The notes under the pieces were generated by a model. The model made no database searches. It was not told the DNA's origin and was given only the letters and a program-made list of their open reading frames with translations. Source: Candidatus Altimarinota bacterium (lineage in GTDB: Bacteria; Patescibacteriota; Gracilibacteria; BD1-5; UBA2023). From it: a stretch of DNA of 35,999 bases. The DNA lies in contig JAYUQR010000056.1 in the NCBI GenBank assembly GCA_043756665.1, forward strand, positions 1-35,999, written 5' to 3'. The position numbers and the translations under genes were made by a program. Below are positions 8,851 through 35,340 of this stretch, piece after piece. The stretch's first letter is position 1. Each line of letters starts with the position of its first letter.

Positions 8851-8927
8851 GCCAATGTAGCTCAGCTGGTTAGAGCGCGGGACTCATAAGCCCGAGGTCG
8901 GCGGTTCAAGCCCGCCCATTGGCACCA
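8851..8927 (+). tRNA. tRNA with anticodon CAU (elongator Met or lysidine-type Ile2), CCA encoded
   Basis: GCCAATG-TA-GCTC-AGCTGGTTA-GAGC-G-CGGGA-CTCATAA-GCCCG-AGGTC-GGCGG-TTCAAGC-CCGCC-CATTGGC-A-CCA. The G1:C72 pair excludes an initiator. Confidence 0.85.
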
Positions 8928-30780: not shown

Positions 30781-30893
30781 TTGTTTCAATGTACAATTTA
30801 CAAATAATAAATTACAATTTCCGGATTGTTCACTATACATTGTTCACTGTTCATTGTTTTTGGGGGTATAGCTCAGTGGTTAGAGCAGTCGGC

Positions 30894-31256
30894 TTAAGGA
30901 TTTTTTTCTAAATCAAGCTCAGGATAATGTTCTTCTGCATGACAATTATGACAAAGGAGTATGCAGGATCTTAACTCATTTTCAATACGTTCGAATGTTC
31001 TATTCGAAAGGGATCGAACATCGAGTTTGAATTCTTTTTTCTGAGGGTCAGTGTGATGAAATGATAATGCACCAAGATTCTTCTTGTATCTGCATCTCAT
31101 GCATCAACCTCAGAAACGCTCAATAAGTTCACGTTTTCTTTTGAATCCTCGAGCTTTCTGAGATGGGTAACTCTGATGTTTCTTGTTTTTGCAGATGATC
31201 GAACAGAATAATTTCTGTTTTCCTGAAAGGATATTTCAGCATATGATACATTTCAT
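30894..31256 (-). CDS. HNH homing endonuclease encoded antisense within the intron
   Basis: ATG 31256: MKCIIC(G)NILSGKQKLFCSIICKNKK (zinc ribbon)...(G)G(G)CMRCRYKK...LSFHHTDPQKKEFKLD...ENELRSCILLCHNCHAEEH (HNH motif). 120 aa, three in-frame UGA. The TAA stop (complement of 30894-30896) abuts the 5' splice site. Confidence 0.8.
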
Positions 31257-31487
31257 AACTGAAAATATAGTAAGATATGAAAAATTTGCAAGGGCGGTTA
31301 TGAGAGTAATCTCATAATGTTTATCTGTCAAATTCGGGGAAACCTTCATCTCAATCGAGATATGGCAATCCCGAGCCAAGCCTGTAATAAGGAAGGTGTA
31401 GAGACTAGATGGCAGACATCCTGAAAAGGATGAAGGGATAGTCCAGACTCCAAACTCGAAAGGGGTAGTGAAAACTATAGCAGTACG
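30895..31487 (+). mobile_element. Group I intron (IC3-like, Azoarcus/cyanobacterial tRNA-intron type) in the anticodon loop, 593 nt
   Basis: The 5' exon ends in U and the intron ends in G (31487). The core at 31320-31487 contains gtcaaattcggggaaacc, tatggcaatcccgagccaagcc and gaaggtgtagagactagatggca. As I recall them, these match the conserved J3/4-P4, P6 and J6/7-P7 segments of the Azoarcus tRNA-Ile intron. P2-like hairpin ttatgaga-gtaa-tctcataa and P8-like hairpin atcct-gaaa-aggat. I could not identify P1/IGS. Confidence 0.75.
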
Positions 31488-33141
31488 CATAACCGATTGG
31501 TCCCTGGTTCAAGTCCAGGTACCCCCACCATAATGTAAATCATTCAGTAAGAGCATCAGTTTTAATGTAACTGATGCTCTTTTCTGTTAGTTCCAACGTA
31601 AAAATATACCCATGTTGTAATTTATTGAACTCTATAAACGGCAAAAACCAATCATGAAGATTGGCTTGCAGTTTCTGATCCATTAATATCCAGTTCCAAC
31701 CAAGAGAACGAAAAATCATTTTCTTGGTTTCTAGATCTCAATCTCTGAATCTTTCGGAAGCATATTTTGAGAAATTGATAGTATCTATGATGAGTTCAGT
31801 CCAGTCTATATTTTCTTTTTCTATCTCAGTTTTTCGTATTTGTAGTAATTCTATTTCTTTTTCTAGCTCTAGCCTCATTCTATCATATTCTTTATAGTTA
31901 CTCTCGAACTCTCAAGCGAGCCTCATGTGTAAGAGTCTCGTTTTTTTCTTTTCAGCAGATTCAAGAGTATTTGTAATGTTTGTTTTTATACTTTCCCTGC
32001 CAGTAGATTCCTCACTATATTTTCGCTTGAGTACTTCTTTTGACCAGTTGAAGAACTCTGGAATGATTTCAATCTCACTTAGAATTTCTTCTATTTGTTT
32101 TTCAACTCATTCGTTTGAGACAACTTTCCTTTGATCGCAATGAAATTCAGTTGTATTTTTTTTGTGTGTGCAGTGGTAATATGTGTATTCTTTCTCTTTT
32201 CCAGTAGAACGTATGTTCTTGTACTTCTTGACTGCTGTAACCATACAACCACAGCATCAGCAACGAATATTCCCAGTATAGGGGAATGTTAATATAGAAG
32301 GCCTTTCTCTATATACCTTATTTGGAGATCCACTTGTATGAGAGATGAGCTTTTGAGCTTTCTCGAATTCTTCCCATGTAATCATAGGCTCGTGAGATCA
32401 CTTGATTGTATTTTTATTATACTTCATGTATCCTGTATAGAAAGGATTCCTGAACATTGCATATAGTGTAGATATTGCGAGTTCTCTACGAGCCTTATAT
32501 TTTACATTTACTGTGGAGTATCACCACTCCGTATTGGCAGTATGTGCTATCTGAGAAGGAGCATAACATCATGTGAGTAGCATATCCCACATCTTTCTTA
32601 CCAACTGGAACTTTTCTGGATCAGAAGCAATAGTTCTTGTAATAGGGTCATTAATATAGCCTTGAGGCGCCTTTGCAGGAAAGTGACCTTTCTCAATCTT
32701 ACTTTTGAGTCATCTTCTTACATTTTTAGAGAGATCAAGAATATACTGATTTGCCATACCTGTTTCAACGCTGAAGATGAGTCATGAATCTTCGGGATGA
32801 TACACTCTATCGCTTGTTATAATTCGCTTTATTTTGTGCCTCTGAAGCATATATTGAACACTTCCTGCATCTACTGGGTTACGAGTAAGTCTATCAAGCT
32901 TCCAACAGAGAATACCATCAATGCTTCATTCTTCTATTTCAGCACACATTTCATAGAATGCTTTCCTTACTCACGGAGCCTTTGCTGATTTTTCTTCAGT
33001 GTAGATTTTCACAATTTCTATGCCATCTTCGACTGCTTTCCTTTTCCAGTATGTAATCTGGTCATCAATTGACTGAACTTGTCTATCTTCTCTTTCAGAA
33101 GACTTCCGTGCATAAAGCACAAATCGGGTAGCTTTTTCCAT
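31405..33141 (-). CDS. Large serine recombinase (resolvase domain, recombinase domain, zinc ribbon, coiled coil)
   Basis: ATG 33141: MEKATRFVLYARKSSEREDRQVQSIDDQ (catalytic Ser region)...IDGILCWKLDRLTRN...GHFPAKAPQGY...AMFRNPFYTGYM...GNIRC(G)CCGCMV...YYHCTHKK...FHC, then a coiled coil. I verified every codon. There are 11 internal UGA codons. A 12th UGA at 31540-31542 is the only stop-like codon before the tRNA. The first in-frame TAA/TAG is TAG 31405-31407, so the code-25 ORF is 578 aa, or 533 aa if it ends at that UGA. Confidence 0.8.
31549..31584 (+). terminator. Rho-independent terminator of the split tRNA
   Basis: aagagcatcagtt (31549-31561) / aactgatgctctt (31569-31581) form a 13-bp perfect stem, followed by tttt. 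Confidence 0.65.
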
Positions 33142-33201: not shown

Positions 33202-35340
33202 TTATGTAAGTCAAACATCAGCTATCGGGCTTATATGCATATTTCTTCAAATATTTTCTATAGTGATGAGTCCAGCATTAGCGAGAGTTGGCTCTATTTC
33301 TTGTCTCCAAAGAGCATCCGACATTGGTCTACCATAAACTTCACTATGTTTTTGTATAATTTTCTTGCGGGTGACTCATATTGCATCCTCTGGTCAGAAA
33401 TAATCTTCCCTTTGCTTGTTGTACTCTATGTAGGCAGGAACAAGTATCTCCATATACAATCGCATTGTATATGGAGATACATTGAACTTTTGACCAGGAG
33501 AGATCTTCTGCCATAGGCTCCATGCTTCCTCAATATCGGTATCTTCGGCATATAAAGTTGCTCATGTTCTTTTTCGATGAGGGAGATTAAGGAGAGCGAA
33601 AGCTCTAATGAATCACATGAATCGGTCTATGTCTCGTTGGTCCCGAGGTATACAGCCCTGTTTTCATTTTCACTCCAGAAAGAATCGATCTACTTTCTCA
33701 GGATCGAGAAAGTCTATATCGTCTATATTGGCATCTTTTATATGCTGAATTCTTTCTTTGAGAATATTTCTTTCAGGATCATTTATAATTGATTCTTTTA
33801 GCTTTTTATCTGCACCACTAAGTCTAATTTTATGCTGGACAGTATCATAGATCTTCTCGCTATGAGTTTCGGGAGAGATAAGTAGAAAACGAGTTGCTTC
33901 TTGTTCATCGAGTTGTGTCGATGCTGTACAGAATACAGCTACAGGATATCCATAAATAATAATGTTTTTTGTTTGGTTTCATCATTGACCACTTTTATCT
34001 GTTATTTTACAGGTCAGAATTGGTTTATCATGTGAGAGAAGAGGCCTTAATTTTCAAAGAAGTTCTGTTCTAGGCTGATCAATAAATATGATAATTTTTC
34101 TATCGAGATGTATGTGTTTCTCATTTTTCTCTTTATCATACTCTCCATTTTCATGGAAGAACGCACTTTGAGATACATAAAGTAATTCCATAAGACTATC
34201 TTTTGGGAAAAGTTGAGCTATCTGTAAGGGTATGTATGATTTACCAGATGAAGACGGAGCATTTAGCATTATATTTATCTGTGAGTCCCTCGTAAATGCT
34301 GTAAGCATAGCCAGAAATACGATTAATTTATTCGTGTCATCATGTTTAATAGTAAGTGAAAGTATTCTTATAATGTCTACACTCGTCATCGGAGCAAATT
34401 TTGATGAATCTGTACCCCGTATGAGCTCACTATATAAAGTCATCATTTCATCGCTAGTTCCACCATTTTTTATAAAGTCAGACACATCTTTCCCCATTTC
34501 TAGTGGAAGTGAGATTCTATATATCTCTTTTTCAGGAAAACGAGCAATAAGTCGGTCAATAAGTCTAGTGGCTCATTTATTTCAGGCATCATCATTATCA
34601 AAACAGATATATATTTTAGAGAGCGATGCAAGACTCTCTAACCATTCTTCTTTGAATGTTCCTACTCATCCCGTAGAGCTTATTCACATAAGTCCCTCCC
34701 GAGAAAGTATCATCTGATCGAATTCTCACTCGCAGATCACTATATAATCATCATTATTTTGCATGTTTTCTCATCCATAGAGCATCGTTTCGTTTCAAGA
34801 TGGGTAAAATATATACTTATTTCCTTCCGATCAGTAGGGGTCACGTCTGAGCTTAAAAAATTGAAATACTCATTTTATATCTCGAATTGGTATTGTTATC
34901 CAGTTTGATCCATAGAAAGAGCCATATCCGATTTGCCTTTCTTTTATGAGTTCTTCCGTAATACCTCGTTCATTCAAGTATTCACGGATGTTTGGTGGTA
35001 ATGACTTCTGATACTTTGAGATATCCTTTTCTGTTAGAGTTATCTTCTTTTTTTGGACTTCTGGATTTCTTGGACTCTTCGGATTTGTGTATCATTCAAG
35101 TGGATATTCTCAAGGATCATCTCAAAAATGTTTGAGAAGCGTGATCCAGTTTCATTGTGCGAGACATTTTTTGCACTGGTAGAGTCCTGTAGACTCTTCG
35201 ATATAAAGATGAGCTTCCTTGCCTCGACTGTCTTTGTCGCATTCATTGAATACGCAATGTGCTGCAATTTCTTTGCCAGTCTTATAGTGAAAGATTCATT
35301 TTTTATCCAAATAAGTGGGGATCGTTGTAGTAGGTAACAT
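33202..35340 (-). CDS. Primase-helicase: CHC2 zinc finger, TOPRIM primase and P-loop NTPase fusion
   Basis: ATG 35340, TAA 33202-33204, 712 aa, every codon checked, 25 in-frame UGA. Zinc finger AAHCVFNECDKDS...LYQCKKCLAQ(G)NW. TOPRIM IVICE(G)EFDQMIL...YICFDNDDA(G)NK(G)A, with UGA on the invariant Gly of EGxxD and DxDxAG. Walker A MLNAPSSSGKSY and Walker B-like KIIIFIDQP. Contains track ORF 34054-34497. Track ORFs 35040-35267 and 35053-35337 are out-of-frame or antisense shadows. Confidence 0.85.

Follow-up and report, generated by a model that had tools for sequence, protein, structure and literature searches.

The DNA stretch analysed here (the window) is the whole of contig C56, 35,999 bp long, from the genome of a Candidatus Altimarinota bacterium (1.36 Mb in 160 contigs, 42% G+C, 86% complete), and our subject is a large serine recombinase gene on its minus strand that runs, with no stop codon, into the antisense strand of a tRNA gene. 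Read with genetic code 25, the recombinase is a single open reading frame (ORF) of 578 aa (31405..33141, minus strand), which differs from its table 11 reading at 12 codons in the ORF listing; by script, in-frame TGA codons were located at residues 57, 72, 120, 144, 191, 207, 248, 295, 345, 410, 468 and 534. The last of them (31542-31540, residue 534) lies 10 nt from the CCA of the tRNA, and the first in-frame TAA or TAG is the TAG at 31405-31407, which terminates the ORF. The preliminary description of this DNA, which had reported both that distance and a frame free of UAA and UAG until the antisense of the tRNA, was accurate on these points. On the evidence of Pfam domains and homologues, codons 1-537 (31531..33141, minus strand), with the sense TGA at 31540-31542 among them, appear to derive from a mobile element. 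They are followed by a putative crossover core at the attL junction (31525..31530), which reads TGGTGG on the recombinase strand and CCACCA on the tRNA strand, encodes W538-W539, and was recognised from the invariance of W538, the frame of the TGG and the identity of attL and attR. The remainder, codons 540-578 with the TAG at 31405-31407 (31405..31524, minus strand), is, as judged from the ORF listing and the comparison with homologue P0001, a tail made by integration, antisense to the tRNA 3' exon and to the last 83 nt of the tRNA intron; counted from the Trp codon of the CCA to the end, the tail comprises 41 codons. The extension had also been described as passing through a terminator hairpin; the exon and intron part of that path stands, but the hairpin (31550-31581) lies upstream of TGA 31540 in the recombinase direction and thus inside the undisputed coding part. 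A 487-nt Logan contig covers the junction (31502-31988) with zero differences in two runs, which are possibly the source data and so not independent.

The target tRNA gene (30862..31530, plus strand; anticodon CAU) consists of exons 30862-30894 and 31488-31530 and a 593-nt group I intron (30895-31487), as defined by Rfam and by intron-less alleles, and its 3' end, ...ACCCCCACCA, lies at 31530 and closes with CCACCA. ARAGORN missed this tRNA because it is split by the intron, which matches Rfam RF00028 at 31277-31468 (78.9 bits, gathering score 50). The intron limits were fixed by intron-less alleles, in which 30894 is joined directly to 31488, in contigs of the same samples and also in relatives, and splicing restores a 7-nt anticodon loop, CUCAUAA. 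Two further CAU tRNAs are found at 8851 and 8934, and the arms of the target resemble tRNA-Ile(GAU) on contig C73; judged from its sequence, the target is most likely tRNA-Ile2.

The domains and homologues indicate that the gene is a large serine recombinase (integrase), seen here in its attL form. The Pfam domains are Resolvase (PF00239, residues 8-152, E 2.6e-19), Recombinase (PF07508, 175-267) and Zn_ribbon_recom (PF13408, 288-352), and residues Y10, R12, K13 and S14, together with four Cys, are invariant in the 21 sequences of alignment A1; by its motif, S14 would be the nucleophile. The nearest solved relatives are the A118 and SPbeta integrases; the C-terminal domain of the A118 integrase (4kis) matches residues 230-476, and the match to solved structures stops at about residue 492, leaving an extra segment of about 60 residues and the tail beyond it. 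An AlphaFold2 (AF2) model of homologue P0004, which carries the native tail described below, has a mean predicted local distance difference test score (pLDDT) of 78.8, with long helices at 363-408 and 417-467; its junction region forms a helix (530-551, pLDDT about 50-70) and the last ~12 residues are of low confidence; the model offers no clue to function. Database searches gave 3752 recombinase matches at E <= 1e-5, and 560 of 600 candidate stretches were confirmed in species-representative genomes, which by record titles are mostly Patescibacteria or candidate phyla radiation (CPR) bacteria. No relative above 25% identity was found in the phage and plasmid collections (at most 23-25%).

The overlap with a tRNA is a property of the family. 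We fetched 80 loci from species-representative genomes and two viral contigs; the match reached the C-terminal region in 80 of these 82, and in 65 of the 80 a convergent tRNA lies over the ORF end, with 12 anticodons represented (His 34, Asn 7, Trp 6, Gln 6, Ser 5, Phe 4, and Leu, Lys and Ile once each). Wherever the CCA is encoded (61 of 61 loci), its antisense TGG falls in frame 0 as a Trp codon, and in alignment A1 W538 is invariant and the C-termini of homologues also resemble antisense tRNA (e.g., WWRDPDLNRGHIDFQSIALPTEL). One homologue, P0001 (91% identical), shares the tail as far as the intron insertion point and then continues as the antisense of an intron-less tRNA (alignment A1), and homologues at other tRNAs end in different tails, each antisense of its own tRNA. 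A tail recurring unchanged at other loci had been named as the outcome that would speak against an exchange of the C-terminus by integration; this is not what is seen. Among the 15 loci without an ARAGORN tRNA, L022 resembles the window in having its target tRNA interrupted by a group I intron, L040 and L079 have a tRNA cut by the contig end, and L032 runs antisense to a tRNA-Ser up to the contig end. We took 57 loci with few in-frame TGA codons as standard-code; their ORF stop (TAA 24, TAG 20, TGA 13) falls 3-104 codons past the Trp (median 10) and within the tRNA gene in 49 of the 57. The four UGA-recoded loci have tails of 33, 34, 58 and 518 codons. At L070, L033 and L059, the tRNA past the recombinase amounts to ~22 nt of the 3' end, reaching to the T loop, beyond which the DNA is unrelated; these may be insertions beside tRNA fragments left by other islands.

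The preliminary description had proposed that attP lies within the 3' coding region of the recombinase, so that integration swaps the C-terminus in the manner of phage Mx8, and our comparisons bear this out. In about 16 of the 120 best homologues, the antisense tRNA is replaced by a native tail with the pattern W-x2-[ILV]2-[DE]2-V-R-T...I-P-[KN]-L. The Arg codons of the motif, in the homologues whose DNA was seen, are CGA in L001, CGC in L076 and AGA in L041; since they vary synonymously, the native tail is conserved as protein. Only two relatives occur on viral contigs (34-38% identity), one of them (L001) with a native-like tail and the other with a tRNA-His. We ran a profile of the native tail (A2) over 11 genomes with a tRNA-fused recombinase, and ten of these gave an orphan or displaced copy at E <= 1e-5; divergent tails were possibly missed with this profile, e.g., the tail expected for L007 in G046. 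In eight genomes the orphan tail stands on the same contig and strand as the recombinase, 1.9-55 kb upstream of it. The elements so delimited span ~17.6 kb at tRNA-Ile2 (G008), ~17.3 kb and ~57 kb at tRNA-Phe (G041 and G042), ~3.5 kb and ~13.5 kb at tRNA-His (G049 and G047), ~12 kb at tRNA-Ser (G050) and ~8 kb at tRNA-Asn (G046), and in G048 two elements stand in tandem at tRNA-His. Most orphan tails are directly preceded by a hairpin with A/T runs, which is how the tRNA's own terminator should appear from the other strand. In ten comparisons of attL with attR, identity was confined to 6-9 bp from the TGG onward and 0-2 bp to its left, and the cores read TGGTGG (Ile2, Phe), TGGGGT (His), TGGCGG (Ser) and TGGCTC (Asn). 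This short shared core places the probable crossover within the last six bases of the tRNA gene, so that the tRNA is unaltered and no fragment of it is displaced. Consistently, no displaced tRNA fragment of the Islander kind is seen at the attR junctions, where the shared sequence is limited to the 6-9 bp core. When the tRNA 3' end was searched against this genome by BLAST, no second copy came up, the related tRNA-Ile(GAU) being the only other match.

Some of these elements are of note in themselves. On contig C1 of G048 (L018, L076, L117, L121), an orphan tail is followed by recombinase A, which carries the tail of recombinase B, and then by recombinase B, fused to the tRNA-His. The upstream recombinase, being joined to the tail of the downstream element, looks intact, and this explains how native-tail recombinases can sit inside chromosomes. 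The smallest complete element, on contig C3 of G049 (L019, L116), holds little beyond the recombinase and 1.9 kb, whereas the 17.6-kb element of G008 (L114, G008:C6:46300-64300) encodes a PLD-SNF2 helicase and an Eco57I-like methylase, which have the look of a defence system, as well as a Y-family polymerase.

The state of the target site before insertion can be read from relatives. In nine fetched relatives, tRNA-Ser(GCU) is followed by an intron-less tRNA-Ile2, and in seven of the nine a hairpin with a T-run comes directly after it, while L110 has no clear hairpin; one of the nine, G008, carries a 61-63% identical recombinase at the same tRNA-Ile2. The synteny of the same-genus genome G003 with the window contig ends at the tRNA 3' end, and a TCTCTC...GAGAGA stem is common to the terminator at the G008 orphan tail and to those of the G012 and G006 empty sites. 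Hence, the search for empty sites proposed earlier succeeded in relatives, where tRNA-Ile2 is intron-less and has its own terminator, but yielded none of this strain in the Logan unitigs (four runs, one study), which span the integrated junction and include alleles of the tRNA that lack the intron.

The genome itself encodes one recombinase only (tblastn) but two orphan tails, C82:2288-2362 and C16:7886-7957. The C82 tail (WWRLVEEVRTALMSHNNIPYIPKLI) has an intact TGGTGG, and to its left lies a terminator after RimO-like and PgeF-like host genes whose synteny with G003 holds as far as the PgeF stop; to its right lie a low-molecular-weight phosphatase and an aldo/keto reductase, an unrelated cargo. 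In G003, synteny at the PgeF-like orthologue ends at the stop and no tRNA follows, and the G003 DNA downstream of tRNA-Ile2 has no match anywhere in this genome; as these comparisons fail both ways, neither candidate attR is confirmed. We also observed that the C82 tail (L084, 2250-2365) is intact, with a two-way terminator before it, and that its DNA is nearly the same as the tRNA-Phe element tails in L092 and L093. This assembly yielded no tRNA-Phe. The C16 tail has a mutated core (TGCTGG) and lies next to genes resembling LexA and ImpB; the ImpB-like one is 75% identical to the far end of the G008 element. The C16 region (L083, 7886-8100, minus strand) in fact holds two tandem tails 10 nt apart (7 nt past the first tail's stop), and the upstream one runs on into a ~20-codon 3' fragment of a recombinase; this double tail is possibly left from decayed tandem elements.

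Given the way the junction is built, the conservation of the native tail, the short core and the empty sites in relatives, all of which come from sequence comparison, we consider it highly probable that the recombinase lacks its stop because the integrase gene was cut by its own integration, through an attP located in its 3' coding end. In the free element, the gene would end in ...F-T-L-W-W followed by a tail of ~23 residues (R-L-V-E-E-V-R-T-A-L...I-P-Y-I-P-K-L-x) and a stop, with attP spanning the two Trp codons; the predicted attP junction is ...TTACATTA-TGGTGG-CGACTAGTC... or its C16 version. We infer that the enzyme itself recombines this site with the final six bases of the tRNA gene as read from the other strand, namely two bases of the acceptor stem, the discriminator and CCA; the exact crossover dinucleotide would lie somewhere within them. 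The tRNA would be left intact; at attL the recombinase would be joined in frame to antisense tRNA, as in the window, and at attR the native tail would come to lie at the other end of the element, beside the former terminator of the tRNA. The new tail would be meaningless and would run to the first chance stop. As this host reads UGA as Gly, that stop is the TAG in the intron core, i.e., the tail has been lengthened by the loss of UGA as a stop. The idea that the last codons are a tolerated junk tail is thus right for those codons, yet it is not an alternative to the integration swap but a consequence of it.

Several observations weigh against this reading. The two candidate partners conflict, one having the clean flank and core (C82) and the other the G008-like cargo (C16). 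As the window is the whole contig, the far end of the element is unlinked, and the last 1000 nt of the window have no match on any other contig. Neither attP (the excised circle) nor an empty site of the same strain was present in the Logan unitigs, which drop rare variants. The partial tRNA 3' ends in L070, L033 and L059 fit only if older tRNA fragments are assumed. Finally, a 5-bp outward shift of a ZD-like motif in attP relative to attB scores best in just four of seven arm pairs; it is clear for tRNA-Phe and tRNA-His but not for tRNA-Ile2, and three of the four pairs are near-identical tRNA-Phe elements, so that we treat it as a weak hint from the arm sequences.

Among the alternatives, the missing stop might reflect relaxed selection on a domesticated or dead recombinase, in other words an immobile, decaying remnant. 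The lack of an excised form in the Logan unitigs and the decayed pieces elsewhere in the genome (the mutated C16 core and its ~20-codon fragment) would suit such a history, as would a tail with an internal stop in the relative G006. We nevertheless hold it very improbable, given that the 537 element codons are open and keep all the invariant columns of the family, the R12-K13-S14 region included, that the adjoining primase-like gene is intact, and that a nearby stop is missing from every integrated member and is therefore no sign of decay. It is also conceivable that the element behaves like the islands of tyrosine integrases, with an attP that carries a long piece of the tRNA 3' end and a crossover deep in the tRNA (e.g., in the T loop), in which case the 3' end of the tRNA, together with the recombinase tail lying over it, would belong to the element even when this is free. 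The ~22 nt of tRNA, to the T loop, kept in L070, L033 and L059 fit this proposal, and the native tail itself contains a T-loop-like GTTCGAACC or GTCAGAAC. Yet identity ends 6-9 bp after the TGG in all ten attL/attR comparisons, there is neither a displaced tRNA fragment at attR nor, by BLAST, a second tRNA 3' end here, and the synonymous variation of the VRT Arg codon speaks for conservation at the protein rather than the DNA level; we find such an island highly improbable.

A third possibility, raised in the preliminary description, concerns the UGA at 31540-31542, and bears on how this genome uses UGA in general. Code 25 is indicated by a tRNA(UCA) at 1692-1770 of the window contig, called by ARAGORN as tRNA-Gly under that code, by UGA at a conserved Gly, and by the lack of a match for release factor 2 (RF2) in this 86%-complete genome, where the sole release-factor homologue scores 268 bits against a prfB cut-off of 370. 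TGA 295 lies inside the zinc ribbon (R-C-(TGA)-C-C-G-C-M), and its column is Gly (CGECGC) in P0027, P0036 and P0050, for which the standard code is suggested only by the titles of their sources; reading this UGA as sense, as had been proposed, is thereby upheld. For TGA 534, alignment A1 has V, L, I, Q, H, E or R in homologues; the TGA is shared with L107, L004 and L003, and L006 has AGA. In native-tail homologues, known here from protein alone, the column is W, probably TGA in the DNA, and ~28 more conserved residues follow. Hence, the sequence data argue that UGA 31540 is a sense codon, for Gly. That it is instead a true stop, recognised by context-dependent termination and giving a 533-residue product with an irrelevant frame downstream, is the least probable of the alternatives. 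In its favour, no other stop-like codon lies close to where the gene should end, and a structured tRNA region comes just after it; against it, this UGA occupies a column that is sense in homologues and followed by conserved sequence, its eleven fellow TGA codons in the ORF are sense, and the contig has a tRNA-Gly(UCA) in a genome where RF2 was not found.

Integration inside the gene may have a further effect, on the tRNA. A hairpin with a T-run in the tRNA sense (31550..31588, plus strand) lies within the recombinase coding sequence (residues ~519-531), as recognised from the sequence itself and from related loci. Hairpins with a T-run occur within 75 nt past the CCA in 45 of 61 loci, whereas a control window lying 300-375 nt farther into the ORF has them in 9 of the 61, and the two stems translate as the conserved residues S-I-S and T-D-A. 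The embedded hairpin is thus probably a replacement for the displaced terminator of the tRNA: the last ~15 element-derived codons would double as a hairpin and T-run that end transcription of the tRNA in place of its own signal.

We tentatively raise, as a possible but rather doubtful extension, that the exchange of tails is a built-in switch of this tRNA-CCA-targeting serine integrase family, with the full enzyme, VRT...IPKL tail included, made only in the free form. If this were so, the junk tail would alter activity, stability or direction, as an analogue of Mx8 IntP/IntX or as a control of directionality that is independent of a recombination directionality factor (RDF), and the same codons would also give the tRNA its new terminator. 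The continued presence of the tRNA half-site at attL would then account for tandem arrays such as that of G048.

The family departs from the systems known to us in part only. Large serine integrases (A118/LI, SPbeta SprA, TP901-1, phiC31, Bxb1) have the same domain order, including a zinc ribbon into which a coiled coil is inserted, and are alike in the short common core of attL and attR with no long repeat; the 6-9 bp shared here would fit the 2-bp crossover of such enzymes. A ZD-type motif possibly lies 5 bp farther out in the attP arm in four of seven pairs, as it does in attP compared with attB of LI integrase (PMC3783163). Unlike them, the present enzymes have attP inside their own coding sequence and the tRNA CCA end as target; according to a standard reference, tRNA genes are not among the known targets of serine integrases (PMC4383910), and a review gives protein genes as the location of serine-recombinase elements (PMC5704250). 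In Mx8, attP lies within the integrase coding sequence, and integration makes a new int 3' end with no inactivation, as given in PMC6070905 and cited in PMC4383910. IntP of Mx8 is alike in having attP in its own gene, and here too the integrated 3' end differs, the displaced end being seen at the other junction in eight genomes; it differs in being a tyrosine recombinase of a single phage, in contrast to a family spread over many tRNAs. The Mx8 attB is reportedly found in tRNA-Asp genes. Mycobacteriophages BPs and Brujita are likewise said to have attP in a coding gene, so that integration at a tRNA alters the C-terminus and behaviour of a protein; the gene that is cut is reportedly the repressor, the integrase a tyrosine enzyme and the removed tail a degradation tag. 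The likeness is the attP inside a coding gene, and we do not assign the role of a degradation tag to the tail described here. In SSV1-type systems, the integrase gene is cut into two large pieces and the stretch of tRNA in common is long, whereas here the last ~24 codons are displaced and 6-9 bp shared; those enzymes are also tyrosine recombinases. Archaeal integrases of the SSV type are encoded by a gene that runs across attP, and they target tRNA genes (PMC4383910). For the filamentous Ralstonia phage phiRSM, with a serine recombinase, the core of attP and attB is the reversed 3' end of tRNA-Ser (TGGCGGAGAGGGT, 13 nt) just beyond int (PMC3816273); it differs in that the enzyme is a small one of the resolvase/invertase type, attP is intergenic (ORF14-ORF15), and there is no account of the protein changing when the phage integrates. 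Full-text searches, which did not extend to subscription journals and supplements, turned up no large serine recombinase whose attP lies in the 3' end of its own gene at a tRNA CCA. Altogether, the arrangement is family-wide, and it is a variant on known kinds rather than a new principle.

An apparently stop-less gene in a UGA-recoded bacterium is thus explained with no odd termination, and gene callers in recoded lineages will often over-extend integrase genes into tRNAs. Moreover, a large family appears to use a 6-bp core for precise insertion at the CCA end of 10 or more tRNA species. As the attP core is a Trp codon plus three bases, the sites are easily predicted from sequence, which could aid the mapping of mobile elements in CPR genomes, and nature provides in this family a set of serine integrases whose cores differ and look programmable.

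Of the neighbouring genes, the one adjoining the recombinase (33202..35340, minus strand) is a primase-like element gene of 712 aa (Pfam Toprim_2; PHROG 47, DNA primase, E 9.9e-33), which is 62-66% identical to the recombinase neighbour in the complete elements of G008 and G041. The tRNA intron contains, on the strand opposite to the tRNA, an HNH endonuclease ORF of 120 aa (30894..31256, minus strand; PHROG 3106, E 8.6e-18; no Pfam match at E 0.01), which has an in-frame TGA and is therefore also read with code 25. The intron is polymorphic, the same tRNA being found without it in relatives and in other organisms of the same samples; P0002, a 63%-identical recombinase, ends in the same ...RMSAI tail and hence also abuts an intron-bearing copy of the tRNA. 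The spacer 5' of the tRNA (30824-30860) contains short TTGTTCA-like repeats, which match a tandem array of 7-nt units at C1:14805-14914.

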